Source: Candidatus Woesebacteria bacterium
GTDB taxonomy: Bacteria > Patescibacteriota > Microgenomatia > UBA8517
Direction: 5' to 3'
Length of the DNA: 64,000 nt
Assembly: GCA_016432525.1 (NCBI GenBank)
Contig: CP066693.1
Location: 849,639 to 913,638 of the forward strand
Position 1 is the first letter of the stretch; each line of letters starts with the position of its first letter. Shown piece after piece: positions 11,407-54,530 of the stretch. Under the pieces are notes generated by a model. It was not told the DNA's origin. It made no database searches and saw nothing but the letters and a program-made list of their open reading frames with translations. The position numbers were made by a program, and so were the translations under genes.

Positions 11407-12588
11407 TTATAAAATTAGAGCTATACCAATCACAAACAATCCCAATCCTGCAAGTACGCTAATTATTGTTGGAGCAGAAAAACCTGCAGCAGGAAGTTTG
11501 CTTGGTTGTGTTGTCACAGTTGGAGCAGAAGTTCCCGTACTCACCGTAAAACTAGCGCTTGCATTACTCGTATTGTTTGAACTATCTGTTGCAGTAATTG
11601 CAATGGTGTGCGATCCATTAGAAAGAGGATTTGTTGGAGTAAACGACCAGTTACCACTACTATTAGCAGTAACTGTTGTATCTATTTGTGCATCTGAATG
11701 AATTACTATTCTAATAGAAGCACCTGCTGCAGCTTTTCCAGAAAAAGTTGGCTTTGAAGTTGTAAGCACTCCCCCCGTTGAAAAGCTTGTTAAGCTTACA
11801 GCAACTGGTGTAGCCGTACTACCAGCCCCTCCAAGCGGTGCTTGAGTTGGTGCAAGTGTTGGTGTTGGACTAGCTGTAGGTGTAGGCGATGGGCTTTGAG
11901 TGGCTAGTGCTAGCTGAGAATTTCCACCTAGATTTGATGTTTCATTCGCCGGAGCTAGCGTTGGTGTTGATGTAGGTGTTGGCGATGGACTTTTGGTTGC
12001 GTTCGGGGTAACTGTCCCTTCTGGAGTAGCAGAAGGTGTAGCACTTGCTTGAGCTATTTCTCCCACATTTATAGTCGCACCATTTTTATTCTGTAAAACA
12101 TTTTGCCCACCTTCTCCAACTGCTACTACAATTGTGTCGTTTGTAAAGTTAACAGCAACCGCTCCATTTGCAAGAGCAGTAAAATTAACTACAGCCAAAT
12201 TTCCTGTTCCGCTTTTGGGAACAACTCCAGGAGGCAAATAAATACTATAAAAAACAGTCCCGTTTGTGTTATTTATAGTTGGTCCAATAACTTGAGGTGA
12301 TACAAAAAATGTACCCAGTGAAACACTATTTGCCTTAAGCTTTGAGGAATCAAAACTTACATAAAGTTCTGTTCCCGCAACTTGATTCGCTCCAGTATCA
12401 ATGTTAATTCCAACATCAAAGCTATCTCCAATTGCAGGCGTCGTACTAGTAGGAGCAAGAGTTAAGCTAGTAGCAGGAGCAGCTTTTTGTTTAAAAAGCT
12501 GCTGTTTTGAAGCAAGAAATATTACGGTAACCAAACCTCCAACCAAAATCAAAATCCCTATTATCGAAAAAATTAGTCTTTTATTCAT
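11407..12588 (-). CDS. cell-surface protein: N-terminal signal-anchor, cohesin-like beta-sandwich domain, Thr/Pro/Ser linker, Ig-like domain, C-terminal LPAAG + hydrophobic tail
   Basis: Paralogous to the 22068..22613 and 13121..14167 N-domains (GTFYxxPxxxGPTIxNTxG...LPPG...SGxGxLAxxNFTA...GEGGQNV). PT-rich linker. C-terminal KLPAAG followed by a hydrophobic segment resembles a sortase signal. Confidence 0.5.
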   Translation of the reverse strand: MNKRLIFSIIGILILVGGLVTVIFLASKQQLFKQKAAPATSLTLAPTSTTPAIGDSFDVGINIDTGANQVAGTELYVSFDSSKLKANSVSLGTFFVSPQVIGPTINNTNGTVFYSIYLPPGVVPKSGTGNLAVVNFTALANGAVAVNFTNDTIVVAVGEGGQNVLQNKNGATINVGEIAQASATPSATPEGTVTPNATKSPSPTPTSTPTLAPANETSNLGGNSQLALATQSPSPTPTASPTPTLAPTQAPLGGAGSTATPVAVSLTSFSTGGVLTTSKPTFSGKAAAGASIRIVIHSDAQIDTTVTANSSGNWSFTPTNPLSNGSHTIAITATDSSNNTSNASASFTVSTGTSAPTVTTQPSKLPAAGFSAPTIISVLAGLGLFVIGIALIL

Positions 12589-13124
12589 AAGTTTTTATTT
12601 ATATTTAATAAAATTGATTTCCCTGTTATATTCAACAAATTCTTCATTTTGGTGACACCATAATAAGAATCAGGTAATATACTCAAGGTAGTAGATTTCG
12701 AAGTAGGATTCAAGACCTGAAAATTCAAATTTGCAATCATAAGCTTCCCAGTCAATTGTGAGTCAAACCCTTGTCCCATTGAAAGAGTAACTATTCCATT
12801 TTTATTATCGATTTCTTTCTCTAAAACGTTAGTGCTTGTCCATATATCTCCAATGTGAACCGAAGTAATCTTTATTGTCTTTGGGTCATATTTTATCTTT
12901 ATACTAAACGCATTCGGAGCATACGTATTAAAATTATCAAATAGTAAACTTACGCTATTTGGCTGTGGTTCAAAATGAACTCCAAGATTTCTAAAGACTC
13001 TGCTCTTTCCTTCCAAAAATGCGATATCAGAAAAATTATTTTTTACCTCATACGACGCTACGAGTAGAATTACTGCAAAAATACCAAAAAAGAAAAAGTA
13101 TATAAATTTATATTTTTTTGTCAT
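12585..13124 (-). CDS. small membrane-anchored protein, possible cohesin-like fold
   Basis: N-terminal TM segment. 4-bp overlaps with both neighbours put it in the operon. No defined motif. Confidence 0.35.
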   Translation of the reverse strand: MTKKYKFIYFFFFGIFAVILLVASYEVKNNFSDIAFLEGKSRVFRNLGVHFEPQPNSVSLLFDNFNTYAPNAFSIKIKYDPKTIKITSVHIGDIWTSTNVLEKEIDNKNGIVTLSMGQGFDSQLTGKLMIANLNFQVLNPTSKSTTLSILPDSYYGVTKMKNLLNITGKSILLNINKNL

Positions 13125-14167
13125 TGGGCAGTTTTACCAAAATTCTCAAACAAAACTATGTAATCCAATAGGTTTACTTTTCCATCTTTATTTATATCTG
13201 CACGTGTATCGAAATTCGAAGTCTTTCCAAAATTCTCAAACAAAACTATGTAATCCAATAGGTTTACTTTTCCATCCCCATTAATATCCCCAGCAAGAGT
13301 TGGTGTTACAGTTGGAGTCGAAGTAGGCGCCCCTGTTGGAACTGGTGTCCCACTAATTGTAGGTGTTGGAGAAGAAACTTCTGTTGCGCAAATTAGTACT
13401 CCGCAAGAGCAAGAATTTGTTCCTTGGTATACACAATTCGGCGCTGGAGTTGCACATACTGCAGGAGTACAAGTCGGGATAATTGTAGGCACTATTGTCG
13501 GAGTAACTGTTGGGCTTGCTGCAGGTGTCGGCGTTGGAATAGCAGTAGCCGTAGCTGTTGGAATCGGGAAAGGAGAAGGAGAAGACATGCTCACTAAAGC
13601 ATTAGATGTAGTAAAACTCAAATCCGTTGGTGTCATATCAACTATCTGTATATTTGAATTACTAATAGAAAAAGTGGCAGGCCCTTGGGATAGACCTGTT
13701 GTAACAGGAGTAATTTTAAAATTTGCTAGCTCAAAAGCTCCAGTTGGAGCATTAGCTACATCATTAGGATCAATTCCAAGAATCGCAACAATCTTTCCAG
13801 TTGCATTCGCATTAGCAAGAGATGTAAGAGAAATAACCTTTTTAAGAGTGGTTGTTGGTATAACTTCAGAGGCTAGATTAACTTTACTGTTATCAAAGTC
13901 AATTTCAACTTTAACAAAACCGATTTTGTAAGTTTTCGCATCCATCATAAGTCTCAATGTTCCATCAGGTGGCAAACTTACACTGGAAGGTAAAAAACTC
14001 AAACTTACGGGGTTTATCAATGCTTTAGATAAATATTTAGCACTTTGAAAAACTTCATACAAGGTAAATGGAAGCGCAACCAAAACAACAATTAATACCA
14101 AAGCTTTTTGAAAACGACTCCCTCTTTTAAGTTCTTTTTTTAGCTCAAAAAATTTACTAAACTTCAT
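13121..14167 (-). CDS. membrane-anchored cohesin-like domain protein with a C-terminal dockerin module
   Basis: N-terminal TM segment, cohesin-like domain and PT/Cys-rich linker. Two C-terminal Ca-binding dockerin repeats (DINGDGKVNLLDYIVLFENFGKT x2), encoded by an 81-bp tandem DNA repeat. Confidence 0.6.
   Translation of the reverse strand: MKFSKFFELKKELKRGSRFQKALVLIVVLVALPFTLYEVFQSAKYLSKALINPVSLSFLPSSVSLPPDGTLRLMMDAKTYKIGFVKVEIDFDNSKVNLASEVIPTTTLKKVISLTSLANANATGKIVAILGIDPNDVANAPTGAFELANFKITPVTTGLSQGPATFSISNSNIQIVDMTPTDLSFTTSNALVSMSSPSPFPIPTATATAIPTPTPAASPTVTPTIVPTIIPTCTPAVCATPAPNCVYQGTNSCSCGVLICATEVSSPTPTISGTPVPTGAPTSTPTVTPTLAGDINGDGKVNLLDYIVLFENFGKTSNFDTRADINKDGKVNLLDYIVLFENFGKTAQ
13135..13300. 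repeat. tandem 81-bp direct repeat (2 copies) encoding the two dockerin segments
   Basis: ccaaaattctcaaacaaaactatgtaatccaataggtttacttttccatc recurs 81 bp apart. Confidence 0.8.
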
Positions 14168-14251
14168 AACTCTTCAAGATTATAATAGCACCTTTCAAAT
14201 ATTGGACACATATCAAAAACCCAATCTGTTATAATATTGCTTGACGATTGT

Positions 14252-14324
14252 GCCTGGATAGCTCAGTGGTAGAGCACTAACTTGGTAAGTTAGGGGTCGA
14301 GAGTTCAATCCTCTCTCCAGGCTC
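14252..14324 (+). tRNA. tRNA-Thr (GGT)
   Basis: GCCTGGATAGCTCAGTGGTAGAGCACTAACTTGGTAAGTTAGGGGTCGAGAGTTCAATCCTCTCTCCAGGCT. Anticodon loop TTGGTAA. Confidence 0.85.
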
Positions 14325-14329
14325 ACAAG

Positions 14330-17300
14330 CTAAAGCAACTTGGATACAACCAAATCCAAATCACTCTGATCAACCTTTCCATCAATATTTAAATCCCCAT
14401 CCATCGGTCCGCGAGTAGTTGTCTGTCCAAAATGAAGTATTACGGTTACATAATCTATTCCATCCACTTTTCCGTCACCATTGGCATCTCCGACAACTGC
14501 AGATGGAGTAGGAGAAGGAGCAGTAACCCCACCCTGACAATTAGAACTTGAAACCCCATTGTCGCTAAAGGCAAAACTTGTTCCCCCAAAAAACTTACAG
14601 GAAACCACTTGATTATTTTTAATTCTTATAACAGCAAGAGCTGCATCTGTTGTAAATGGCCCGACTGTTCGTGAACTTCGAGAATTTTTAAAATTACTTG
14701 TTCCCACCAAAAACCAATCTGTTCCCTGAGATGTCGTCACTTTTACTGAACGGGAATTATCGGAACTGTTAGTTGCGGTAGTTTGGATATTTTGGATGAA
14801 TCCACTTTTTCCAACTCCAATCGGCTCAAGCGTATCGACATAGGTCGCTTCCGTTCCGTTTCGTTCTGCCACGGCAAAATCCTGGCGGAGATTCGTGGTT
14901 TGATTCCTGGCTGGACCTGTTAACCACGCTACGGTTACTTTTGTATTTGGAACTCCTTCCATGGTCAAACGCATTTTTGAACCTTTGGGCGGCCAAGCGT
15001 ACGTCGCATCCTGCATAATACTTCCTTCGTTCATCGTCCAGTCTCCTTGCCATAATCCGGTAGCTGTAAATTGCTGTCCTTTGTGACCAGTGTTTGTAAT
15101 GTAGTATCCAAACGGATCCCAGTCCGCACCACTCGGATCTTTTGCATCTGATAACGCAACCGTCGGATTCGATATTGCCAGTTCGCCCATATTCCGATAT
15201 CCCCATTCAATTCTATGCACCGCTCCATCACGAGGTTTCACAATGAACGTATCAAACAAATACTCCGGTAACTGAACGTTCCATCTTTCCTGATGTGCCA
15301 TGCCAGGAGTAGTGCTCCAGCTTGCTGCCATTTCCGTTGTCGCCACAGCCGAAGGCGTGTTGGGGTCAGGATCAAAGTGAACAAAATCTCCCCAAAACCC
15401 AGGCTCTGATCGATCAATCATAACTTTATTAAGAAGAAGATATGGATACCCTCTCCAATCATACCCATATCGAGGAGTCAAGATTGTTCCATTAGCAAAG
15501 GCAACAATCCCCATACCATCACCAGAAACATGATCTCCAGGATAAAATCCTAGGTGTTTGCTGGACAAAAGTGTCTCCATTCGAGTATCCCAGGATCCGG
15601 GACCACGCAGCATCGCATAACCCCATCCATCAATTTTAAATGACTGATTATCAACGGTTGATCCTGCTTTTCGGCTATTTTCCTGATTAATGGTGTTTTG
15701 GAAATAAGAAATAAGATCCGTGCGGTCAGGGTACATGAGCTTCAGTAAGGCAAAAGCATTCCCATAAGCTCGTGTCAGTTGATTGACCGCTCCTCCTCCA
15801 TTTAACATCGGGAAACTCCCGTCAGAGAATGGAAACTCATTCCACATAACCAAAGATTTGAGAATTAAATCCTTCAAATTGGTAAAGGCCGGAAGTTGAA
15901 TTGTGCTTAAAAACGCCGATGCTTCATTGGCCAGATCCATATAGACACCGGGCCATCCGTAACTTCCAGGTTCATTTGCAAACGATCCGTCCTCGCGAAA
16001 AAGATTTTGAGTGGTGTACAGAGTATTTATCCACTCCGCGGCTTGCTCTTGGACAGCACTGTCGCGGGAACTTGCTGCTGCTGCTAAAAACGTCCAGATG
16101 TCCGTGCCTTCTAGTTCCACCGCTTCCCGCATATGATAGGACACAAACGGTTCACCGGCTAGATGTGTCTTCGTTGCATTCCCAAACATTTTGGTCGGGG
16201 CATAAAAATGGAATCCATTACCACCCAACGCTTGGACATCCATGTGGATATATTCCATATTGGATCCAGTCCCCAGTCGAATCCATTCTCCTGATTCATT
16301 GGCCATATCCATAAATGGGGCAGTTTTAACATTAAAATAAATATTCGCCTGTCCTGGACTATAATTTTGTGCCAGTGTACCAGAAATCCGCAAATCATCC
16401 CGATAACTTAAAAATAGCGGCAGGATGACATTATGCAAGAAACGAAAATGTTCATCGTCCGTCATGGCATTTTGTTGTAACAACTTGACATAAGAAGTGA
16501 GAGCAGTAACTCCGCCAAATTCATACTGCGTCGCAGGAAGAATAAACGGGCGTGCGATGTCCCACCGCGGTACAAAATAATAGGGTACTTCATTGGATAG
16601 AACTTGCATCGCAGACTTAAGCTCAGCAGTTGATGAATTCTGACCGATGCCAGCCAAAACAGTAGAAAGTGGACTGCCAAGGTACGGAGATCTGTTGGTT
16701 CGTGTGGCATCTTCCAAAAGAGTTCCCGGGCGCGTCAGTGCCCAATTTGTTAAATCAAATCCACCTTTGGTCATAATATGAGACGGCGCATGGGTTAACG
16801 CATAGACAAACGCACCCGTGACATCCTGTTGATATATCCCATTTTGGAATCCAAAACTCTGTCTTGTTGGAATTACATTTGTCATATCTGTGGTATCAAC
16901 CGGAGCAAATCCACCAGCGTTGTAGTCTTTTACATAGGCTAATTTTGTGACGGTTTGCATGGGAAGATAGCCATTGGCTGCAGACATCAAATATGGTTTT
17001 GATAAATTAGCAATATCATTTGATTTAAGATCCAACCGAACCAGCTCTGAGTAATTTGCTGGAACCGGTGCGTTTGATTCGACCGTCAGTGAAAATGGAG
17101 TGCTCTGTCCACGAGCAAGTTGCAATGTGGATCCGGTACTCACAGAAGTGACAGAATAGACACTTGTGGTTTTTCCAGACCGAGGCATAACAGATGTGGT
17201 GACGCCAAAACTTACCGTACTGGGAGCTAAATTGGTCCAGGTGCCATTGAACGTAATACGAATCCGTCCGTCTGAGAGCGTTGTGACCTGATGGTTGGAA

Positions 17301-17905
17301 AAATCCAATGCAGGAAATACAGAATTTCCCACAATCGCCCAGGGATTGGCGGGATTTGTTGGAGGAGCTCCTTGGGTAAAATAGGCACTTTTTAAAACAA
17401 CGCCTCCATTATGGAAATCAAATTCGATAGTATGAGATCCGGTTGCCAGATTGACTGTTCCCGGAAGGGACCAGGTGATTGCCGGTGGAGCCCCGCCATA
17501 AAATTGTGGCGTTGAACCCCATTTGTAATCCGGACTATTCGGCCACAGATCTATTTGCGACCATCCAGATGGACTTTGACCATCTACTTTTACATCCATC
17601 AGTCTATGCGCCGCTATCTGATAGTAACTAAAGACGAATGAATAATTTCCTGCGGTTGTCGCTGTGAATGGATACTGAATCGACCCATCTCTATATGAAC
17701 CAACTCCTTTTGGTGGAAATCCGCTTAAAGGACTAGCCTCTGTCGAAAGATATAAATTCCGATTCACAACATTTACAGCCGTTACACCAGCTCCTGCTGG
17801 ATCAAGGTTAAGATTAATCGTTGTAGAAGTTTGAGCGAAAGCTATCTCCTTTGCAGCAAAAAGAATAATGCCACTAACTAAAAAAATAAGTAATTTTTTA
17901 AACAT
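14330..17905 (-). CDS. large (1191 aa) secreted dockerin-bearing protein, probably a carbohydrate-active enzyme (polysaccharide-lyase/heparinase II-III-like fold suspected)
   Basis: Signal peptide and a ~1100-aa body with elevated GC. C-terminal dockerin repeats (DANGDGKVDGIDYVTVILHFGQ, DLNIDGKVDQSDLDLVVSKL). The enzyme family is not confirmed. Confidence 0.5.
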   Translation of the reverse strand: MFKKLLIFLVSGIILFAAKEIAFAQTSTTINLNLDPAGAGVTAVNVVNRNLYLSTEASPLSGFPPKGVGSYRDGSIQYPFTATTAGNYSFVFSYYQIAAHRLMDVKVDGQSPSGWSQIDLWPNSPDYKWGSTPQFYGGAPPAITWSLPGTVNLATGSHTIEFDFHNGGVVLKSAYFTQGAPPTNPANPWAIVGNSVFPALDFSNHQVTTLSDGRIRITFNGTWTNLAPSTVSFGVTTSVMPRSGKTTSVYSVTSVSTGSTLQLARGQSTPFSLTVESNAPVPANYSELVRLDLKSNDIANLSKPYLMSAANGYLPMQTVTKLAYVKDYNAGGFAPVDTTDMTNVIPTRQSFGFQNGIYQQDVTGAFVYALTHAPSHIMTKGGFDLTNWALTRPGTLLEDATRTNRSPYLGSPLSTVLAGIGQNSSTAELKSAMQVLSNEVPYYFVPRWDIARPFILPATQYEFGGVTALTSYVKLLQQNAMTDDEHFRFLHNVILPLFLSYRDDLRISGTLAQNYSPGQANIYFNVKTAPFMDMANESGEWIRLGTGSNMEYIHMDVQALGGNGFHFYAPTKMFGNATKTHLAGEPFVSYHMREAVELEGTDIWTFLAAAASSRDSAVQEQAAEWINTLYTTQNLFREDGSFANEPGSYGWPGVYMDLANEASAFLSTIQLPAFTNLKDLILKSLVMWNEFPFSDGSFPMLNGGGAVNQLTRAYGNAFALLKLMYPDRTDLISYFQNTINQENSRKAGSTVDNQSFKIDGWGYAMLRGPGSWDTRMETLLSSKHLGFYPGDHVSGDGMGIVAFANGTILTPRYGYDWRGYPYLLLNKVMIDRSEPGFWGDFVHFDPDPNTPSAVATTEMAASWSTTPGMAHQERWNVQLPEYLFDTFIVKPRDGAVHRIEWGYRNMGELAISNPTVALSDAKDPSGADWDPFGYYITNTGHKGQQFTATGLWQGDWTMNEGSIMQDATYAWPPKGSKMRLTMEGVPNTKVTVAWLTGPARNQTTNLRQDFAVAERNGTEATYVDTLEPIGVGKSGFIQNIQTTATNSSDNSRSVKVTTSQGTDWFLVGTSNFKNSRSSRTVGPFTTDAALAVIRIKNNQVVSCKFFGGTSFAFSDNGVSSSNCQGGVTAPSPTPSAVVGDANGDGKVDGIDYVTVILHFGQTTTRGPMDGDLNIDGKVDQSDLDLVVSKLL

Positions 17906-19389
17906 TAACTAATTTTACTAATAATTAAGTTTAGATCATTAATGTCAACTTTTCCATCCGCATTTACGTCTCCATCTCTTGCTCCGTTTGTTGTTGTTTG
18001 CCCAAAATGAATTACTACAGTCATATAATCAATTCCATCCACTTTCCCATCTCCATTAACATCGGGGGAAGTAGGAATCGGAGACGAAGTTGGTGCTAAA
18101 GTTGGGCTAGGGGTATTAGTTGCTACATTTCCAAATCTGTCCCAATCCCGCAAACCCAATGCTCTGAATGCATTCCAAAACCCGTCCACACTTGTGGGAG
18201 CTAATGAATTAGGTCCAACATTAACTACTTGCCCAAACCATTGTCTTCCTGATCCATATAGCGGGCTTCCTGAAGGAACTACCATCCTGAGTTTTGAAAA
18301 ATACCCTTCTATGTTTTGATTCGAAAAGATGTCTGATATAGGACTAGAAAAAGCCTGTTTTATGGAAGAAATATTGCTATCTATTTCTGCTTCAGATAAC
18401 CCAAGCTCTTGAGCCTCTTGCCCCCGAGTTAGTGTTATAGTCTGGCTCCCTAATAAAGGCGAGCTCAAAAAGGCATTGTTAGTAATTGTATTAGTTGTAT
18501 TGCCGCTTGTCCAAGCATAACCATTGGGACCAAGAATATTGTTAATCAAATATGTGTTGGCTCCAGCAAGCCAAGGTCCCCATGGGCCCTCGCGACCAGC
18601 CTGTCCTGTCATTTTCCAAAAAAAATTGTTGGCAATCAAATGGTCGGAACCGTCCATAACAAGGCCCCAAAAATGACCTGTAACAAAATTACGGGTGACA
18701 ATACTATCATGTGTATTATGCCAACCGTGAATTCCATATCCTTCACCTCCAATTAGAATGTTATTGTCGACAATGGTATGGGTAGCCATTTGGCCAACGG
18801 TATATCCACCAGAAATATACAGCCCATGGTCAAACCTTCCGTTTCCCATCAAAATAAATCTATTTCCCTGATAAAATGTGTATTCTGCCGAACCCTGACT
18901 AATCCCGTTATAACCAAAAAGTGTATTGTTAACTAGTTGGATCCCATTACTAACTGGACTACCTCCAGTAAAAAACGCGTTTCCAGAATTTGCTTTGCCT
19001 CCAAACCACATACTTTCCAATCTTGTATAACTAGCGACATGAACAGGAGGCGGCAAATCACCATCAGTTGAAAAGATAACTCTCGCGCCTGGCTCAGATT
19101 TGAAAATAGTCATATTTGAAGAACTTGTTCCTGCAGGTCCAAAAGAAACTGAAGAAATCCTATAAATGCCTGAGGCAATCATTACTGTATCTCCGCTTTT
19201 TATGCTGCTTATTGCTTTTGTTATAGTCTTCCAAGCGGAAGTTTGTTGAGTTCCAAGATTTCCATCATTTCCACTATTAGTATTTACATAATAAGTAGAT
19301 GCCAACGCTTTTCTTGGAAATAAAAACAAAAAAAAGAAAACCAGAATCAAAAACAAAAATATTCTTTTCATCTCAAAAACTATAAACAT
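17905..19389 (-). CDS. secreted right-handed parallel beta-helix (pectate-lyase-like) protein with C-terminal dockerin
   Basis: Signal peptide and PbH1-like repeats (NNILIGGEGYGIHGWHNTHDSIVTRNFVTGHFWGLVMDGSDHLIANNFF). Dockerin repeats DVNGDGKVDGIDYMTVVIHFGQ and DVNADGKVDINDLNLIISK. Confidence 0.6.
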   Translation of the reverse strand: MFIVFEMKRIFLFLILVFFFLFLFPRKALASTYYVNTNSGNDGNLGTQQTSAWKTITKAISSIKSGDTVMIASGIYRISSVSFGPAGTSSSNMTIFKSEPGARVIFSTDGDLPPPVHVASYTRLESMWFGGKANSGNAFFTGGSPVSNGIQLVNNTLFGYNGISQGSAEYTFYQGNRFILMGNGRFDHGLYISGGYTVGQMATHTIVDNNILIGGEGYGIHGWHNTHDSIVTRNFVTGHFWGLVMDGSDHLIANNFFWKMTGQAGREGPWGPWLAGANTYLINNILGPNGYAWTSGNTTNTITNNAFLSSPLLGSQTITLTRGQEAQELGLSEAEIDSNISSIKQAFSSPISDIFSNQNIEGYFSKLRMVVPSGSPLYGSGRQWFGQVVNVGPNSLAPTSVDGFWNAFRALGLRDWDRFGNVATNTPSPTLAPTSSPIPTSPDVNGDGKVDGIDYMTVVIHFGQTTTNGARDGDVNADGKVDINDLNLIISKIS

Positions 19390-19429: not shown

Positions 19430-19621
19430 ATGGCCAAAAAAGGAGCTCGAGAAATAGTCGCTTTAGTGTGTAGTGTTTGTAAAAGCCAAAACTACATAAC
19501 TGAGCGAAACAAGGTTAATCTTCAAGTTAAAGCCAAAAAAGGCGAAAAACTTATAGTCAAAAAATATTGCAAAACTTGCAAAAAACACACCGAGCACAAA
19601 GAATCTTCAAAGCTAAAATAA
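19430..19621 (+). CDS. rpmG: 50S ribosomal protein L33
   Basis: MAKKGAREIVALVCSVCKSQNYITERNK...KYCKTCKKHTEHKE resembles the L33 zinc-ribbon form. Confidence 0.8.
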   Translation: MAKKGAREIVALVCSVCKSQNYITERNKVNLQVKAKKGEKLIVKKYCKTCKKHTEHKESSKLK

Positions 19622-19623
19622 GC

Positions 19624-19652
19624 TTGACTTTTTCTTTATCTTATAGTATATT
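19624..19652 (+). promoter_or_regulatory. sigma70-like promoter (TTGACT-N17-TATATT) for the first small Cys-rich gene
   Basis: -35 TTGACT at 19624-19629, 17-bp spacer, -10 TATATT at 19647-19652. Confidence 0.45.
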
Positions 19653-19701
19653 TATGCAGTAGCAAATCGCTACTCTAGTAGCTTTTTTCGTGGAGGAACG
19701 G

Positions 19702-19980
19702 ATGCAAACGCCAGTATCTTTTATCAAAGAAGGTGGCAGCTTGCCGCACTCGTATCATAGGGATCCAATGATTCCCCGCGAGCGAGTGACCGCCGAGATC
19801 ACAAATTGCGCTTGCTGCGGTAAGCCAATCATGATCAAAGAGGGCGAAGATCCCCTCTGTCGGCGTTGCAAGAACCAGGGTGCGATCCCGGTTTTGTGTC
19901 GCATTGCAACCTGCACCACCATCATGTGGCGACGCAAGGACGAGCCTGCACCGGTTTGTTGCAATCACGAAAAAGTTTAG
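19702..19980 (+). CDS. small Cys-rich (zinc-ribbon-like) protein, paralog 1
   Basis: RBS GGAGGA before the ATG at 19702 (the ORF track's 19690 is a GTG). Cys pairs CACCG...CRRC and CRIATC...CC. GC-rich. Own terminator downstream. Confidence 0.5.
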   Translation: MQTPVSFIKEGGSLPHSYHRDPMIPRERVTAEITNCACCGKPIMIKEGEDPLCRRCKNQGAIPVLCRIATCTTIMWRRKDEPAPVCCNHEKV

Positions 19981-19992
19981 GGCCAAAGGGCC

Positions 19993-20040
19993 ATCCCGCA
20001 CTGACTTGGGTCAACCAACGTTAGCGCGGGATCTTTTTTG
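19993..20040 (+). terminator. rho-independent terminator
   Basis: ATCCCGC...GCGGGAT stem followed by TCTTTTTT. Confidence 0.6.
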
Positions 20041-20116
20041 CTCAAAAATTCATTTATTGATATAATATAATTCCTTAAATATTCGAGATGTCTTAGAGTT
20101 CATTGAAAGGAAAAAC

Positions 20117-20401
20117 ATGAGTAAGCATAGTAGGGCTCGGTTGTCGTTGGACAGAGTTGGCAATTACGTTTTTGGCGGAGTCTTAAATCACCCGCCATCG
20201 TATCTTCCCAATTACCAGTGTCTAAGTGACTATTCGCTTAGACAAAAGGTCATCGCCCAAAACGGCGGAAAGCCACCAACTTCCGGCGACATACGTGCAC
20301 TAAAGCCTTCCTATCATATCCAGACATGTAGAGAGCCTGGTTGCACAACTAAAGGCATCACCAAAATTGGTGAACCATTTTTCTGTCGCAGACACAAATA
20401 A
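20117..20401 (+). CDS. small Cys-rich (zinc-ribbon-like) protein, paralog 2
   Basis: RBS AGGAAA. CREPGC...CRRH C-terminal motif. AT-rich promoter-like region with TATAAT at 20061-20071. Own terminator. Confidence 0.5.
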   Translation: MSKHSRARLSLDRVGNYVFGGVLNHPPSYLPNYQCLSDYSLRQKVIAQNGGKPPTSGDIRALKPSYHIQTCREPGCTTKGITKIGEPFFCRRHK

Positions 20402-20422
20402 TAGGAAATAGCATATAGATCA

Positions 20423-20462
20423 ATCCCGCATTCAAAAATCTAACGAATGCGGGATTTTTTTG
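20423..20462 (+). terminator. rho-independent terminator
   Basis: ATCCCGCATTC...GAATGCGGGAT stem followed by TTTTTTT. Confidence 0.65.
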
Positions 20463-20521
20463 CCTATTTAATGTATAATATACTATCGTAACAAGCTTAG
20501 TGTAAAAGACAAGGGGACGAG

Positions 20522-20752
20522 ATGGTGACAAAGATGGTGGTACCTGAAAAAAGGGAAGCTAAAGTTCAATTGGTTACACGCCCACACAACCATGCGCGTC
20601 GGACTCCGGATGCAATGATTGTTCCATGTGCAGGTAAAGGCTGTCACGTTCAATTGATCGTTCCAATTGAACGATATGAAAAGGATAAGCTTTATTACTG
20701 CAGAGGCACTTTTTGTAAATACGAACGAACTACTCAAACAGGAGTAAGATAA
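20522..20752 (+). CDS. small Cys-rich (zinc-ribbon-like) protein, paralog 3
   Basis: RBS AAGGGGA. CAGKGC...CRGTFC motif. Extended -10 TGTATAAT at 20473-20480. Own terminator. Confidence 0.5.
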   Translation: MVTKMVVPEKREAKVQLVTRPHNHARRTPDAMIVPCAGKGCHVQLIVPIERYEKDKLYYCRGTFCKYERTTQTGVR

Positions 20753-20769
20753 CAAACCAAAGCAGGCCA

Positions 20770-20812
20770 AATCCTCGCAACACACGACAATTTTGCGAGG
20801 ATTTTCTTTTTG
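20770..20812 (+). terminator. rho-independent terminator
   Basis: AATCCTCGCAA...TTGCGAGGATT stem followed by TTCTTTTT. Confidence 0.6.
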
Positions 20813-20829
20813 ATATAATGACCATAAAT

Positions 20830-20900
20830 AGGCCTGTAGTGAAATGGCATCACAACCGTCTCCAAAACGGTTATTCCAGGTTCGAATCCTGGCAGGCCTG
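20830..20900 (+). tRNA. tRNA-Trp (CCA)
   Basis: AGGCCTG acceptor, anticodon stem ACCGT/ACGGT with loop CTCCAAA, T-arm CCAGGTTCGAATCCTGG. Confidence 0.8.
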
Positions 20901-20990
20901 CATTTGTTATTCAATTGTCGACACTTTTTTACACTTACATTCACTTTACCTATCTCGTAAATGTTGCTATTTTTACTCTATAATTAATTA

Positions 20991-21947
20991 ATGCCTGAAA
21001 TATTAATTGCTTTAATAAGCGGAATCGTCCTTCTCCTCTTTTCAACCAAAACTCTAATAAAGTTATCTGAAACTCTTTCTTTATCCTTAAAGCTATCACC
21101 TTTGATTATTGGTATGACTGTTGTCGCAATCGGGACTTCCCTGCCTGAATTGTCAGTATCCACAATCGCATCACTCCAGCACGATTATGGTTTGGCAGTC
21201 GGAAATATTATCGGGTCAAATATTGTAAATATTCTACTTGTTTTTTCAGTAGGTATACTCATAGGGAACCTCCGCATAGGGACAACTAAAACCCCAAGAA
21301 ATGCAATAATTTTGCTACTTTTTACTTTCATTTATACCTACACGCATCTATTTACAAATTTCCCTAGACAAACACTGGGGTTATTCTTTATAACCACCTC
21401 ATTTTTGGTTACTTTTCTCGAATATAAATGGGCACTCTTTGGTCGAACTCATGAAGATAATAAAAAATTCAAAAATTCTAAAAGGGTTAGGTTTACATTA
21501 GGAAAACTTATATTACTAATAATGTCTGTAGCCGGAATAATAACAGGCGGATATTTCATCGTAACATCAACCGAGAAACTATCTTTGATTACCGGATTGT
21601 CTACGGGGGTGCTTGGTTTAACTTTAACTGCAGTTGCAACTTCCTTACCGGAACTTCTAACTACCATATTTAGCCAAGAAGAACATGAAGAAAAGATGAC
21701 TATCGGAAACATAATTGGAAGTAATATTTATAATCTTTTTCTAATAGGAGGAATTATCGACTTATTCAGTGGTAATACAAATTTAATTCAAATCAACTGG
21801 TTAACGCTAAACTTAACGACTGTCTTTTTGGTTTTAATAATATTTATATTTCGCGGTAAAACAATTCCTAAATGGATTGGCCTAACATCTCTACTTTTAT
21901 TTTTTATGTATATCCTATACGAGACCAAAAATCTATCTTTGAACTAA
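20991..21947 (+). CDS. Ca2+/cation antiporter (CaCA / YrbG-like)
   Basis: Two alpha-repeats (GTSLPELSVS...GNIIGSNIVN and ATSLPELLTT...GNIIGSNIYN) and about 10 TM segments. Confidence 0.75.
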   Translation: MPEILIALISGIVLLLFSTKTLIKLSETLSLSLKLSPLIIGMTVVAIGTSLPELSVSTIASLQHDYGLAVGNIIGSNIVNILLVFSVGILIGNLRIGTTKTPRNAIILLLFTFIYTYTHLFTNFPRQTLGLFFITTSFLVTFLEYKWALFGRTHEDNKKFKNSKRVRFTLGKLILLIMSVAGIITGGYFIVTSTEKLSLITGLSTGVLGLTLTAVATSLPELLTTIFSQEEHEEKMTIGNIIGSNIYNLFLIGGIIDLFSGNTNLIQINWLTLNLTTVFLVLIIFIFRGKTIPKWIGLTSLLLFFMYILYETKNLSLN

Positions 21948-22067: not shown

Positions 22068-22613
22068 TTACTTCCCAGAAGCCTTACGAACGTTTATGGA
22101 AATAGGAGAAAGAGTGGAGATAACGTTTTGCCCGCCTTCACCAGTTGCAATAACTAAAGTATTCGCCGAATCAAAAGAAACAGGAGTAATTCCTTGAGAG
22201 ATAGCCGTAAAATTAAGAGTTGCCAGAACCCCAGATCCCGAAACAGGCATAGATCCTGGGGGAACAATCAAAGCATAAGAAAGTTTCCCTGAAGTATTAT
22301 CTATAGTAGGCCCTAATATTGTCGGATTTGTATAAAATGTTCCGGCAACAACTCCATTAAGTCTAAGCTTCAAAGGATCATAATTTATATTTAATTGAGC
22401 CCCAGCTGTTTGATTTAAACCTGTCGAAATATAAACTCTCAAAGAAAATTGATCGTTTACTTTAATTTTATTATTAACAAGCAAAAAACTTAGGCTTGTA
22501 GAAGGAGCGGCACTGCTTCTAATATCATATTTTCTATTCACCTGGTTAACTACAAAAAGGCTAACTAAAACTGAAATCAGAAAAAATACCGTTGCCAAAA
22601 ACCATTTAACCAT
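22068..22613 (-). CDS. membrane-anchored single cohesin-like domain protein
   Basis: N-terminal TM segment. Domain paralogous to the N-domains of the 11407 and 13121 genes. Confidence 0.45.
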   Translation of the reverse strand: MVKWFLATVFFLISVLVSLFVVNQVNRKYDIRSSAAPSTSLSFLLVNNKIKVNDQFSLRVYISTGLNQTAGAQLNINYDPLKLRLNGVVAGTFYTNPTILGPTIDNTSGKLSYALIVPPGSMPVSGSGVLATLNFTAISQGITPVSFDSANTLVIATGEGGQNVISTLSPISINVRKASGK

Positions 22614-42810: not shown

Positions 42811-43929
42811 ATGAACGAATGGATATTCAGGACTTTCAGTCCAATAATAAAAGTCGTTGGAGCGGGATGTAATTTAAGATGTACATACTGCTTCTACTTT
42901 GGACATCAGCCAAAGATAAATATAATGGGAAATGATGTGTTGAAACTAGTATTAAGCGAGTGTCTTCAAGCGGCGTCTTTCGTTAGATTCATCTGGCACG
43001 GAGGTGAACCCACAATAGCAGGAGCAGAATATTATCGAAAGATACTTGCCATAGAAGACAAAGTTCGTAGAGATGGTCAAAAAGTTACTCATAGTATACA
43101 AACCAATGCTACGCTTTTAAATCCTCAATGGATTGATCTTCTTAAATCCAAGAGATTCTCTATCGGAGTAAGCATTGATGGGCCAGAATACCTCCATAAT
43201 TTTGCTAGAATCAACGCAAACGGTCGCGGATCATTTAGAGAGGTTCAAAAAGGTATCGTGCTATTTCGGAATGCAGGAATAAAATTCGGCTCAATCGCTG
43301 TAGTCAATAGTTACACAGTGAATTTCCCTGAAGAAATATTCTGGTTTATGTACAATCAGAAAATTTCCTTTAGTGCTAATGCGTGTGTAGCATATCCTAG
43401 CGATCCAGAGGAGGTCAGACAATTAACAATAAGCCCAATGCAATTCTCTAATTTCCTTCTTCGATTGTTAGATCTATGGCTAAAAACAGATGATCCAACA
43501 TTCAACATCAAGCCATTAGATGACATAATCAAAGGAATATTAGGACGACAACCTTCTCTGTGTAGATATCGCGGACAATGTCAAATGTATCTAACAATAG
43601 ACTCCAATGGAGATGTTTATCCATGCGATGAGTATCTAAATCAAAATTACAACTTTGGCAACCTAAGACAAACGCCATTGAAAAAAATTGTTCAAAGCAC
43701 AAACCTCAATGAGTACTATGCAGGCAGAACAATCATGCAAACTGTCTGTCAAAACTGTCAATGGTTCAATATCTGCAAAGGAGGCTGTATGAGAGAATGG
43801 GGCGGTTCTAAATCCATTACCGACCCTAGAGAAACGGAATTCTGCAAAGCTCGACAGTTTCTGTTCGAGGAAGTAAGAGATCGAATTCAGCTATTGGGAT
43901 ATTCCAAAAAGGAGATTCTAAATGTCTGA
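42811..43929 (+). CDS. radical SAM enzyme with C-terminal SPASM domain (peptide-modifying maturase type)
   Basis: CNLRCTYC (CxxxCxxC) near the N-terminus. C-terminal CQNCQWFNICKGGC (Cx2Cx5Cx3C) plus additional auxiliary-cluster Cys. Confidence 0.9.
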   Translation: MNEWIFRTFSPIIKVVGAGCNLRCTYCFYFGHQPKINIMGNDVLKLVLSECLQAASFVRFIWHGGEPTIAGAEYYRKILAIEDKVRRDGQKVTHSIQTNATLLNPQWIDLLKSKRFSIGVSIDGPEYLHNFARINANGRGSFREVQKGIVLFRNAGIKFGSIAVVNSYTVNFPEEIFWFMYNQKISFSANACVAYPSDPEEVRQLTISPMQFSNFLLRLLDLWLKTDDPTFNIKPLDDIIKGILGRQPSLCRYRGQCQMYLTIDSNGDVYPCDEYLNQNYNFGNLRQTPLKKIVQSTNLNEYYAGRTIMQTVCQNCQWFNICKGGCMREWGGSKSITDPRETEFCKARQFLFEEVRDRIQLLGYSKKEILNV

Positions 43930-49410: not shown

Positions 49411-49440
49411 TTGACAGTAACTTTCTAAATCAAATATAAT
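49411..49440 (+). promoter_or_regulatory. near-consensus sigma70 promoter TTGACA-N18-TATAAT
   Basis: Directly upstream of the 49484 peptide gene. Confidence 0.55.
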
Positions 49441-49483
49441 CAATCTTGTCCGGGAATTTTTAAGTACAGAAAGGAAACTGAAA

Positions 49484-49636
49484 ATGTTTGTTTTCTCTCT
49501 ACACGAAGAGGAATTGCCGGAAGACATAGCAAACGGCCCAGTTGAAATGGAAGACGGTCCCGTCGAAGGATTAAGCCCTCTACACGTCACATCAAATCCA
49601 GACGCCGACGAAGGGGACAAGGATCCTGAACAGTAA
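49484..49636 (+). CDS. small acidic peptide (50 aa)
   Basis: RBS AAAGGAAA before the ATG. MFVFSLHEEELPEDIANGPVEMEDGPVEGLSPLHVTSNPDADEGDKDPEQ. Promoter and terminator present. Confidence 0.45.
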   Translation: MFVFSLHEEELPEDIANGPVEMEDGPVEGLSPLHVTSNPDADEGDKDPEQ

Positions 49637-49663
49637 TCACATAAGTTGATTCTTTAATTCAAA

Positions 49664-49718
49664 TGCCCTGCGCAAACGAGAAATCTATATATCTCAATAA
49701 ACGCAGGGCACTTTTTTT
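49664..49718 (+). terminator. rho-independent terminator (9-bp stem, long loop, T7 tract)
   Basis: TGCCCTGCG...CGCAGGGCA followed by CTTTTTTT. Confidence 0.45.
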
Positions 49719-49741
49719 AAAATTCTTCTTCCTATAATATA

Positions 49742-49770
49742 TTGACTCATTTGAAATCTTGTAATATAAT
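49742..49770 (+). promoter_or_regulatory. near-consensus sigma70 promoter TTGACT-N17-TATAAT
   Basis: Directly upstream of the 49809 peptide gene. The ACAGAAAGGA leader resembles the 49484 leader. Confidence 0.55.
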
Positions 49771-49808
49771 ACGCTTATCCAATTTTTTGGCACAGAAAGG
49801 ATTCAAAA

Positions 49809-49955
49809 ATGCCAACCGTATATTGGATGAGCAGCGACGATGATGACGAGGTCTCAAATCCTGGCACCCCGCCGCCGGAATTGGGTGAGCCGCAAAGCGA
49901 CCCGCCGCCTTCTGGAACCGAAATCGATGAGAATGGAGAACCCACCGGTAGTTAA
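49809..49955 (+). CDS. small acidic Pro-rich peptide (48 aa)
   Basis: RBS AAAGGA. MPTVYWMSSDDDDEVSNPGTPPPELGEPQSDPPPSGTEIDENGEPTGS. Confidence 0.45.
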   Translation: MPTVYWMSSDDDDEVSNPGTPPPELGEPQSDPPPSGTEIDENGEPTGS

Positions 49956-50042
49956 CATCTAGTCGCAAGTCACAGTGAGCGAGTTCACCTCCAAAGATTT
50001 ACCTCTTTGAATGAATTCGCTCATATATCATAATAAAAAATA

Positions 50043-53470: not shown

Positions 53471-53722
53471 TTATTTAAGTTTTATATAAACAATGGCCAG
53501 ACGGGCAACAGAATATACAATAATAATGCCATCAAAAACTTCGTACACAATACGAAATGGCCATACCCGCAATGATCTCAAGCCTTTGAGCTCTCCCCTT
53601 AAGGGTTTACCAGCCAAAGGATCATCAGCCAAGATCTCAAGTTTGTTTATGATCTTCGTCTTCTCTTTTTTTGAAAGTCTCTTCAGTTGTTTAACTACTT
53701 GAGGTTTATATCTTATCTCCAT
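53471..53722 (-). CDS. RelE/ParE-family type II toxin
   Basis: MEIRYKPQVVKQLKRL...KIINKLEILADDP...GKPLRGELKGLRSLRVWPFRIVYEV. Immediately downstream of a Phd/YefM gene. Confidence 0.65.
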   Translation of the reverse strand: MEIRYKPQVVKQLKRLSKKEKTKIINKLEILADDPLAGKPLRGELKGLRSLRVWPFRIVYEVFDGIIIVYSVARLAIVYIKLK

Positions 53723-53733
53723 TCAACTACAAA

Positions 53734-53997
53734 TTACATTCCAATCTTTTCGAGAAGCTCTTTATGGGAAATAGTTGCCTTCTCTTTTCTGGCACCTCTT
53801 ATCACATTCGGCTCCTCTTTATTTGATAAAATGTCTAAAGTTTCAAACCAAGAATCAAGCTCATCTTTGCTTAAAAGAACCACAGAAGATCCACTTCTTA
53901 ATTTAATCTCATATTTTCTTATTCCTTTACTCGCAGCTTTTATTAAAGAATAGAGATTTTTTCTCGCTTCACTCGCAGTATAAACAATTGTATCCAT
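53734..53997 (-). CDS. Phd/YefM-family antitoxin
   Basis: ...YTASEARKNLYSLIKAAS...SVVLLSKDELDSWFETLDIL. Confidence 0.7.
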   Translation of the reverse strand: MDTIVYTASEARKNLYSLIKAASKGIRKYEIKLRSGSSVVLLSKDELDSWFETLDILSNKEEPNVIRGARKEKATISHKELLEKIGM

Positions 53998-54035
53998 ACA
54001 AAAATCGTACTACAACCAGTACGCATTGTCAACTG

Positions 54036-54107
54036 TGTCCCCGCCAAGAATCGAACTTGGATTTAAGGTTTAGGAAACCTCCGTTCTATCCGTTGAACTA
54101 CGAGGAC
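54036..54107 (-). tRNA. tRNA-Arg (CCT)
   Basis: Reverse complement GTCCTCGTAGTTCAACGGATAGAACGGAGGTTTCCTAAACCTTAAATCCAAGTTCGATTCTTGGCGGGGACA. Anticodon loop TTCCTAA. Confidence 0.8.
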
Positions 54108-54317
54108 GTGCCTAAATTATACCAAATTCGCCTAAAGTAAACTAATTTTTATCCAACACAACTCCAATCTCCCTTTTGAGTTTGCAATCAAAACCAACTA
54201 GTGATAAATTACACATTATGGGACTGGCTGAATAAGCTAGAATGGAATTGGGCATATTCACAATATGATGGACATAGAGCAGTATCATCAATCCTAATCG
54301 AAAGGAGGTAATAATTT

Positions 54318-54530
54318 ATGCCTATCGATATATGGAAAGACGATTGGCGCAATCTCGGAGATAACGTACACGGCGCAACCGTGAAAATCGACGACGATAA
54401 CACTCATACAACCGTTCATGGAGATGATTGGCATAGATCATGGGATACAAACCGGACCACAAACGAAATCTCACATGATCATGTCACAACCCATGATGAT
54501 CACGAGCACTATGACGTAGACAAACTCTAA
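54318..54530 (+). CDS. small His/Asp/Trp-rich peptide (70 aa)
   Basis: RBS AAAGGAGG. MPIDIWKDDWRNLGDNVHG...DDWHRSWDT...HDDHEHYDVDKL. Confidence 0.45.
   Translation: MPIDIWKDDWRNLGDNVHGATVKIDDDNTHTTVHGDDWHRSWDTNRTTNEISHDHVTTHDDHEHYDVDKL

Follow-up and report, generated by a model that had tools for sequence, protein, structure and literature searches.

A moron is defined by its own promoter, its own terminator, a deviating GC content and horizontal spread (PMC3594210), and the C(P)XCG proteins of Haloferax volcanii are small one-domain zinc-finger micro-proteins (PMC6562870, PMC11241148). The 64,000-nucleotide stretch analysed here (the window) is part of a 916,571-bp metagenome-assembled genome (MAG) of a Candidatus Woesebacteria bacterium from groundwater, a member of the Candidate Phyla Radiation (CPR; Microgenomates), and contains between rpmG and tRNA-Trp a block of three small genes, g1, g2 and g3, that would join these two known kinds, the small zinc-finger micro-protein and the moron-like accessory cassette. 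The reading that we prefer, at a probability of about 55%, takes the block as an array of three accessory cassettes that vary between strains, resemble morons and encode basic zinc-ribbon mini-proteins. The trio are real, unannotated, stand-alone orphan genes at a variable site; no paralogous family can be demonstrated among them, and the junction that contains them is not one that is otherwise empty. Genomes of CPR bacteria measure about 1 Mb, and much of their gene content has no known function; the present genome measures 0.92 Mb.

Like phage morons, each unit of the block holds a single small gene with a predicted promoter and a terminator of its own, is inserted between conserved genes, deviates from its neighbours in GC content and is present or replaced between close relatives. 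Unlike them, the block lies outside any recognisable prophage or phage, with no phage genes in its flanks and no match in phage collections apart from one weak, seeded match; in addition, there are three units in tandem, and whereas a classical moron moves as a whole, here the regulatory scaffold stays and the body of the open reading frame (ORF) changes. The products of g1, g2 and g3 resemble the zinc-finger micro-proteins in being shorter than 100 aa, in carrying two Cys knuckles 10 to 20 residues apart and in being orphans missed by automatic annotation, as such proteins often are. The likeness extends to one CxxCG motif in g1 and to a CPKCG motif in the corresponding ORF of a related strain. 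In contrast to the Haloferax proteins, with which they share no sequence homology, their knuckles are mostly Cx4C or Cx2H rather than C(P)XCG, and the genes are bacterial, clustered, strain-variable and foreign in composition, with zinc binding as a prediction. The sole related allele set comes from that strain, which is represented by one 1065-bp Logan contig (L003) that covers rpmG through the g3 promoter. The features of the block and its borders, including the predicted promoters (P1 to P3), the terminators (T1 to T3) and the Shine-Dalgarno (SD) sites, are as follows.

19430 to 19621, plus strand: rpmG (ribosomal protein L33, C4 zinc form), an exact match to QQG47419.1; left border of the block
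19624 to 19652, plus strand: P1, predicted sigma-70-like promoter TTGACT-N17-TATATT, 10 of 12 consensus positions in the scan, 2 nt after the rpmG stop
19692 to 19980, plus strand: g1, coding sequence (CDS) of 92 aa, SD site GGAGGA at 19692-19697, ATG at 19702, TAG at 19978-19980
19980 to 20039, plus strand: T1, two-part hairpin (stem ATCCCGC...GCGGGAT, 19993-20032) with a T-run, -33.3 kcal/mol, z -5.3
20058 to 20066, plus strand: P2, candidate extended -10 element TGATATAAT, read from the sequence, kept in L003
20107 to 20401, plus strand: g2, CDS of 94 aa at 20117-20401, SD site AAGGA at 20107-20111
20422 to 20462, plus strand: T2, perfect 12-bp hairpin (AATCCCGCATTC...GAATGCGGGATT) with a T-run, -19.2 kcal/mol, z -4.9 (repeat I8)
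20474 to 20479, plus strand: P3, candidate -10 hexamer TATAAT, read from the sequence, kept in L003
20511 to 20752, plus strand: g3, CDS of 76 aa at 20522-20752, SD site AAGGGGA at 20511-20517
20769 to 20812, plus strand: T3, perfect 12-bp hairpin (AAATCCTCGCAA...TTGCGAGGATTT) with a T-rich tail, -18.7 kcal/mol, z -5.5 (repeat I10)
20811 to 20819, plus strand: candidate extended -10 element TGATATAAT before tRNA-Trp, likewise read from the sequence and the same as P2
20830 to 20901, plus strand: tRNA-Trp(CCA), found by ARAGORN and Rfam; right border of the block

The three ORFs do not overlap, lie on one strand and begin with ATG, with an SD-like site 4-6 nt upstream of each start. In first-order Markov simulations of the block, three non-overlapping plus-strand ORFs of at least 70 aa arose in only 2 of 5000 runs, and three ORFs that all carry spaced Cys/His pairs arose in none of 5000. 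The arrangement is not due to chance. An earlier note on this DNA, made from the sequence alone, had described separate transcription units of small Cys-rich proteins, of about 93, 94 and 76 aa at 19702, 20117 and 20522; the anatomy supports this description, with g1 corrected to 92 aa. The protein annotated next after rpmG, the Na/Ca exchanger QQG47420.1 at 20991-21947, follows QQG47419.1 consecutively in the numbering, and thus no CDS is annotated by NCBI in the 1.2 kb from rpmG to tRNA-Trp. The exact sequences of g1 and g2 were not found among ~15 billion predicted proteins, while g3 is present in the same collection only as a singleton cluster (P0001) from two Logan contigs of the same strain, where it is the only one of the three to have been called by a gene finder. 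Gene finders also skipped both ORFs of the related strain, g1b and g2b, which means that such genes are in part invisible to protein databases. Foreign codon usage is probably the reason why g1 and g2 were missed; the codon score of g3 lies at the low edge of host genes. The locus is thus a concrete case of CPR accessory small genes that protein databases do not capture, with three well-formed genes missed by the NCBI annotation and two of them also by the gene calls behind the 15-billion-protein collection.

Two antisense ORFs, one of 108 aa over g1 (19675-20001, minus strand) and one of 153 aa over g3 (20483-20944, minus strand), were rejected, as they lack an SD site and run opposite to the orientation of the promoters and terminators; the latter was also rejected since it overlaps tRNA-Trp. 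Both are in all likelihood artefacts that arise where the sequence is GC-rich or poor in stop codons. If genes are mapped naively by the longest ORF, the 153-aa antisense ORF is chosen over g3.

Each gene is followed by a hairpin and T-run terminator with a folding energy well below that of shuffled sequence (z -4.9 to -5.5), and the related stems that the earlier note had pointed out, ATCCCGC...GCGGGAT, are borne out as well, with exactly 2 occurrences in 64 kb versus 0 expected. A simple terminator scan missed T1-T3 only because their loops exceed 8 nt. The earlier note's claim that each gene has a promoter of its own holds for P1 as a scan result, whereas the -10 elements of P2 and P3 were read by eye. 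The promoters are predictions backed mainly by conservation in the second strain, in which one base of the 29-nt P1 motif is changed. An Rfam match to Trp_leader at 20362-20462, with 25.7 bits versus a gathering score of 41, does no more than coincide with T2 and was rejected. A possible SD-sequestering hairpin in the g2 leader has two pairs that are compensated between the strains but is thermodynamically weak (-8.9 kcal/mol, z +1.4).

Comparison with the related strain reveals which parts of the block are kept and which change. The rpmG orthologue in L003, which has a match to PF00471, is 93% identical in DNA and 97% identical in protein to that of the window, and the rpmG-g1, g1-g2 and g2-g3 intergenic regions are ~90% identical, with the promoters and terminators at 90-100%. 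A 54-nt stretch over T1, including its loop, is identical. The homology spans rpmG, P1 and the leader, ends at window position 19685 just upstream of the g1 SD site and restarts right after the g1 stop; it then spans T1, P2 and the g2 leader, decays across g2 and is back at the T2 stem. The g1 slot of L003 measures 190 nt versus 293 nt in the window and contains an unrelated SD-led ORF of 54 aa, g1b, which is basic and Cys-rich (CxC...CPKCG) and ends just before T1. As judged from the alignment, a non-homologous change with such sharp borders can only be a replacement event. The g2 slot, by comparison, holds an orthologue, g2b, with 44% protein identity (E value 8e-20), in which the C-terminal Cx4C...Cx2H of g2 is replaced by CxxC...CxxC. 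The description of the locus as mobile or rapidly evolving, which the earlier note had offered, is therefore upheld as regards the variability of the locus; the single family that it had assumed is not.

In the N-terminal half of g2 and g2b, the proportion of nonsynonymous differences (pN) is 0.25 and that of synonymous differences (pS) 0.58 (Fisher p 6e-4), which corresponds to a ratio of nonsynonymous to synonymous divergence (dN/dS) of ~0.28, and the indels are of 3 nt. This constraint at the protein level, together with the 3-nt indels, shows that g2 is a protein-coding gene under constraint. For g1 the argument from sequence is a different one, namely that two unrelated inserts in one slot each give an SD-led, slot-filling, basic, Cys-paired ORF, which suggests that the slot is used for coding. 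The dS of g2, ~1.1, is about four times that of rpmG (0.29), and the flanking non-coding DNA differs by only ~10%. Either the ORF bodies would be older than their flanks, through import or through recombination in the conserved flanks, or neutral divergence is higher than rpmG suggests and strong constraint acts on the regulatory DNA.

The ORF bodies also stand out in composition. The GC content at third codon positions (GC3) is 0.59 in g1, 0.45 in g2 and 0.32 in g3, compared with 0.26 in 30 long ORFs, and the alleles of the related strain (g1b and g2b) have GC3 values of 0.48 and 0.45 versus 0.27 for its rpmG. With 53% GC, g1 falls in the top 1% of 280-nt windows, in line with the earlier observation that the block is GC-richer than its flanks, and the codon-usage scores of g1 and g2 lie below the 5th percentile of 90-codon host windows. 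The foreign composition of the ORF bodies thus points to horizontal acquisition from a pool of higher GC content.

Cys makes up 4-10% of the residues of g1-g3, compared with 1.05% in the long ORFs of the window. The g1 protein contains nine Cys in two knuckle pairs, C36/C38/C39...C53/C56 (CxCC...Cx2C) and C66/C71...C86/C87/H89 (Cx4C...CCxH). In g2 the Cys and His residues are C35, C71, C76, C90 and H93, with the pattern Cx4C...Cx2H, and in g3 the cysteines C36/C41...C60/C65 form Cx4C...Cx4C. Two potential metal-ligand knuckles (CxnC or CxnH, n = 1-4) at least 8 residues apart are found in g1 (twice), in g2, in g3 and in both ORFs of the related strain. The net charges are +4 (g1), +10 (g2), +8 (g3), +8 (g1b) and +11 (g2b). 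Single-sequence AlphaFold2 models of g1 and g2 show beta hairpins around the Cys pairs, at mean predicted local distance difference test (pLDDT) values of 60 and 65, respectively, with residues 33-94 of g2 at about 70-86. The Cys/His spacing and the zinc-ribbon-like beta hairpins of these low-confidence models suggest metal binding, and the products are probably small basic proteins with zinc-ribbon-like Cys/His knuckles that bind nucleic acid or a partner protein.

Several known zinc-binding families have a comparable design. Phage Mu Com (PF10122) and Lar (PF14354) are of similar size and share the basic zinc-ribbon design, and g2b has sub-threshold matches to Com (15.5 versus 22.9 bits) and to a Lar-like PHROG. 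However, g1, g2 and g3 match neither family in Pfam. The CxxC...CxxC end of g2b likewise gives sub-threshold matches to the generic zinc ribbons Com, Prok-RING, FmdB and TFIIB. The EsV-1-7 motif (PF19114) has the consensus C-x4-C-x16-C-x2-H, to which the g2 C terminus (C-x4-C-x13-C-x2-H) and the second finger of g1 (C-x4-C-x14-CC-x-H) bear some likeness; in contrast to the EsV-1-7 family, which is known from brown-algal viruses and eukaryotes, the spacing here is shorter (x13), the motif is present in single copy rather than as tandem repeats, and the score is 11 bits against 25. Relatives of g1-g3 were also sought by tblastn against 80 related rpmG loci and the rest of the window, by a word-indexed search of 5.8 billion clusters and, for g2, by a full HMMER search of 1.84 billion representatives; these gave no relatives, nothing or g3 itself only, and 0 matches at E <= 0.001, respectively. 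Metagenome scans with the T1 hairpin and the g2/g2b alignment gave no match. The anti-sigma-like or toxin-like function considered in the earlier note drew no support, as no such family was matched in Pfam, PHROGs, PADLOC or NCBIfam.

g3 and a 169-aa ORF of a viral contig of 92 kb from IMG/VR (IMGVR_UViG_3300045988_182914; L084 4890-5399) both contain 'YEKDKLYYC' with a nearby Cys knuckle. The viral ORF has a sub-threshold match to Lar_restr_allev (15.9 versus 28.6 bits, E value 0.015) and is the only g3-like sequence to approach Lar. As an exact 8-residue seed led to the g3 match, its E value does not apply to the whole database and the match is not significant on that scale. We take it as a weak lead, the sole link of the three genes to phage sequence.

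The rpmG to tRNA-Trp junction was compared across 80 rpmG loci from other Microgenomates species and a same-strain contig, with tRNA-Trp within 4 kb downstream in 72 loci (71 from other species and the same-strain contig). Across these the gap is anywhere from 9 to 3504 bp long (median ~750 bp), in disagreement with the earlier idea of a junction that is normally empty; nor does secE follow tRNA-Trp here, the actual next gene being the Na/Ca exchanger. What occupies the gap differs widely: besides many orphan small ORFs there are PaaX-like and GIY-YIG proteins, a membrane-anchored protein that recurs, and a match to a YafQ-like toxin that stays below threshold and has a further small ORF next to it. 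A sigma-70-like promoter motif similar to P1, TTGAC[AT]-N16-18-TAnnnT, occurs within 160 nt after rpmG in 10 of the 80 related loci, compared with 1.4% of control windows. Across the clade, then, this junction is a variable site.

Taken together, these data suggest the following model. By its sequence each cassette has a predicted -10 or extended -10 promoter, a leader of ~40-50 nt, an SD site and a single ORF of 76-94 codons, followed by a strong intrinsic terminator. The one or two pairs of Cys/His knuckles would fold as zinc-ribbon or treble-clef mini-domains that bind nucleic acid or a protein partner. The ORF bodies would have been acquired horizontally, with the rpmG to tRNA-Trp gap as a permissive site for such cassettes, and could be swapped between strains by homologous recombination, with the conserved promoter and terminator regions on either side as anchors. 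Turnover may be driven by diversifying or frequency-dependent selection under which the product class, basic and Cys-paired, is retained; the selection and exchange steps are drawn from one strain pair. That g1b and g2b are again basic, with CxxC-type pairs, would count for cassette replacement. Genes of conflict, with phages, mobile elements or the host cell of the episymbiont, would fit this pattern better than housekeeping genes, and anti-defence, defence or host-interaction regulators are candidate roles.

A number of results weigh against the cassette reading. P2 and P3 lack a good -35 element, for which reason P2 is outside the promoter-scan list, and the generic promoter scan itself shows no enrichment, with 7 promoters found versus 6.7 expected from shuffles. 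The exchange between strains rests on the one comparison with L003, and g3 is beyond its reach. Moreover, the rpmG dS of 0.29 may underestimate neutral divergence, so that the high dS of g2 could be ordinary divergence rather than import. No recombinase, integrase, transposase or phage gene was found within ~9 kb on either side, as covered by ten flanking ORFs and precomputed flank matches. Pfam gave nothing above threshold for g1-g3, the best match being g2 residues 71-94 to EsV_1_7_cys (PF19114) at 11 bits against the cut-off of 25 (E value 0.41), and searches of PHROGs, PADLOC, NCBIfam and PDB sequences with the products gave nothing above threshold either. Phage blastn and tblastn gave no match, nor did viral scans with g1, g2/g2b, T1 and T2, and Foldseek of the models (pLDDT 60-65) against PDB and BFVD gave nothing below E = 1. 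Finally, the g1 and g2 bodies fold more stably than their dinucleotide shuffles on both strands (z -3.5/-3.7 and -4.2/-4.8, respectively), which the coding model does not predict and which keeps alive the reading of the units as structured or dual-function RNAs.

By that account the units would be structured non-coding or dual-function RNA genes of ~300-400 nt from promoter to terminator, with ORFs that are incidental or secondary. The folding lies beyond the range of 40 host coding windows (mean z -0.14, sd 1.16, minimum -3.24), and the counterparts in the related strain (L003 348-959) fold well too (z -3.2 for g1b and -2.7 for g2b) although g1b is unrelated to g1. In an AT-rich genome, strongly folding GC-rich islands that each come with a promoter and a terminator are a textbook sign of non-coding RNA, and the fact that gene finders skipped g1 and g2 is compatible with this. 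We nevertheless consider this reading unlikely. In both strains an SD site lies 4-6 nt before the ATG of an ORF that occupies its unit as far as the terminator, five ORFs that are unrelated or diverged all carry Cys/His pairs, and g2 bears the protein-level constraint and the 3-nt indels described above. As read from the sequence, pairs of the main g2 hairpin are lost in L003 and not compensated, g3 and other small ORFs fold in an ordinary manner (z about -1 for g3), and the reverse strand folds equally well, so that the folding provides no strand-specific evidence. A known RNA family was rejected, as Rfam gave no match at the gathering score and no credible match at E values up to 10. Equally unlikely in our view is descent from an ancestral Cys-rich gene that underwent tandem duplication, terminator and promoter included, and was then inherited vertically as a fast-diverging paralogous family. 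This reading is close to that of the earlier note, which had called the genes paralogous, and it would account for the common ATCCCGC/GCGGGAT stems of T1 and T2, the similar T3 stem (AATCCTCGC) and the layout shared by every junction, in which a hairpin and a T-run are followed by TATAAT. It could also draw on a loose motif of g1 and g2 (C-x13-C-R-R-[CH]-K and CR...CTT...EP...C..H), which is suggestive and not significant. In Smith-Waterman comparisons against composition-preserving shuffles, however, the pairs gave p = 0.09 (g1-g2), 0.83 (g1-g3) and 0.21 (g2-g3), and BLAST among five sequences including g1-g3 gave E values of 0.26 or worse for the g1-g3 pairs; the Pro/His-rich segment that the products had been said to share is statistically not distinguishable from chance. 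The junctions fail to align beyond short motifs, the three genes differ strongly in GC3, and the g1 slot of the related strain, with its non-homologous ORF of another length and its sharp borders, indicates replacement rather than gradual divergence.

The block might instead be non-functional debris, the decayed remnant of a mobile element or prophage beside a tRNA gene in which the ORFs arose by chance. The foreign composition, the lack of homologues and of annotation, the adjoining tRNA gene and a short imperfect repeat of the tRNA-Trp 3' end (19944-19960 versus 20897-20910, with inverted copies at 20749-20769) are what such debris would leave, yet chance is not expected to yield three SD-led, Cys-paired ORFs, purifying selection acts on g2, and at 90-100% identity the regulatory DNA is better conserved than the synonymous sites of rpmG. 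In addition, junk is rare in a 0.92-Mb genome and there are no mobile-element genes nearby, and we regard decay as improbable to a degree that sets it below the two readings just discussed. The most improbable of the alternatives gives the products a zinc-related or ribosome-associated role, for instance as lineage-specific small proteins that belong to or bind the ribosome and are encoded beside rpmG. They are indeed small and very basic, with Cys4-type knuckles like those of L33, L32, L36 or S14, they adjoin rpmG and have strong SD sites, and the best, non-significant Foldseek matches of g1 include archaeal and eukaryotic zinc-ribbon ribosomal proteins. However, every structural match has E > 1, and foreign codon usage is the opposite of what is found in highly expressed core translation genes. 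That the genes are not conserved between close strains and are absent from the 80 related loci argues strongly against a ribosomal role.

Several other candidates were rejected. The block shares with integron cassettes a promoter-proximal array of single-ORF units that is strain-variable and has hairpin-forming separators; in contrast to them, each cassette has its own promoter and the hairpins are followed by T-runs and promoters. attC sites have the core consensus RYYYAAC/GTTRRRY. No such cores are present in T1-T3 and no integrase lies within ~9 kb on either side, and an integron array was therefore rejected. No second copy of any part of the block was found in the 64-kb window (best blastn E value 0.22), and a diversity-generating retroelement target was rejected, as this leaves no template repeat in the window. 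A precursor of a ribosomally synthesized and post-translationally modified peptide was rejected, with no modifying enzyme in the scanned flanking ORFs; the nearest ORF that looks radical-SAM-like, judged by its N-terminal Cys motif, is at 42811-43929, ~22 kb off and outside the scan. A secreted effector was rejected on the grounds that inspection of the product sequences by eye, with no predictor used, revealed no N-terminal hydrophobic segment.

A more specific form of the cassette reading, which we put forward tentatively and consider doubtful, is that the conserved promoter, leader and terminator modules act as fixed 'expression slots' into and out of which unrelated small zinc-ribbon ORFs are swapped between strains by recombination in the conserved flanks. 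This would be an integrase-free cassette exchange that provides CPR bacteria, with their minimal genomes, with a strain-level repertoire of small inhibitors that bind nucleic acid or protein, for use against phages or host cells, and the self-complementarity of the ORF bodies (z to -4.8) might be part of the slot mechanism, for example through mRNA stability, recombination or a function at the RNA level. If the pattern of a kept regulatory scaffold with changing ORFs holds in more strains, it would offer streamlined episymbionts a simple way to keep a variable set of small effectors or regulators, and the genes would be candidates for new anti-phage, anti-defence or host-interaction factors. 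If it fails, the block would be no more than small orphan genes clustered, in an ordinary way, where a variable site adjoins a tRNA gene.

Elsewhere in the window, positions 49412-49990 have the same architecture as the block, with two tandem units, predicted promoters at or near the consensus and GC-rich ORFs.

49412 to 49440: predicted promoter of the first unit, TTGACA-N17-TATAAT, followed by SD site AGAAAGGAAA, an ORF at 49484-49636 (50 aa, very acidic), a long-loop hairpin CCCTGCG...CGCAGGG and a T-run
49743 to 49771: predicted promoter of the second unit, TTGACT-N17-TATAAT, followed by SD site AGAAAGGA, an ORF at 49809-49955 (48 aa, acidic, Pro-rich) and a hairpin GAGCGA...TCGCTC

Both hairpins have long loops, and the T-run is found after the first one only. 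Both ORFs are orphans that occur as singleton clusters in Logan only and have no Pfam match. The shared architecture thus indicates a genome-wide style of accessory small gene. Another accessory spot by a tRNA gene is seen at 53471-54530, where a pair of minus-strand ORFs (53471-53722 and 53734-53997) has, by eye only, the look of a RelE/ParE-type toxin and a Phd/YefM-type antitoxin. The pair adjoins tRNA-Arg (54035-54107), and beyond the tRNA lies a 70-aa His/Asp-rich orphan (54318-54530; QQG47460.1, hypothetical).

The flanks of the block, besides rpmG and tRNA-Trp, encode cohesin/dockerin surface proteins, the Na/Ca exchanger and a glycosyltransferase. The cluster of cohesin- and dockerin-domain proteins, at 11407-19389 and 22068-22613, includes ORFs of 1191 aa and 494 aa (pectate-lyase-like beta helix) with common segments that are 76% identical, so that cellulosome-like surface machinery lies on both sides of the block. 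At the right border, the tRNA-Trp 3' end and the bases downstream of it (GGCCTGCATTTGTTAT, 20890-20910) have an imperfect inverted copy at the g3 stop codon (ATAACAAACCAAAGCAGGCC, 20749-20769), and a gapped direct copy of the same region is found within the 3' end of g1 (GCCTGCACCGGTTTGTT, 19944-19960, versus 20897-20910). These repeats could be due to chance or be a trace of past recombination at the tRNA.

In the related Microgenomates loci, small minus-strand ORFs lie directly 5' of tRNA-Trp. Two of them (L007 5369-5614 and L008 4322-4570) have '...DG[ST]FVFLG...CGP.PGDIV' in common, and a second pair (L006 4324-4536 and L010 5617-5820) shares '...DGS.WQ[IV]Q'. The four ORFs have no Pfam match and may represent one or two conserved unannotated small-protein families. 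In at least 4 species, the rpmG to tRNA-Trp gap also contains a ~133-aa protein that starts with MTHVS[KR].KL and has a weak match to Trp_repressor (E value 0.009, 16.5 bits versus a cut-off of 27); a TrpR/YerC-like regulator adjoining tRNA-Trp would be a curious arrangement.

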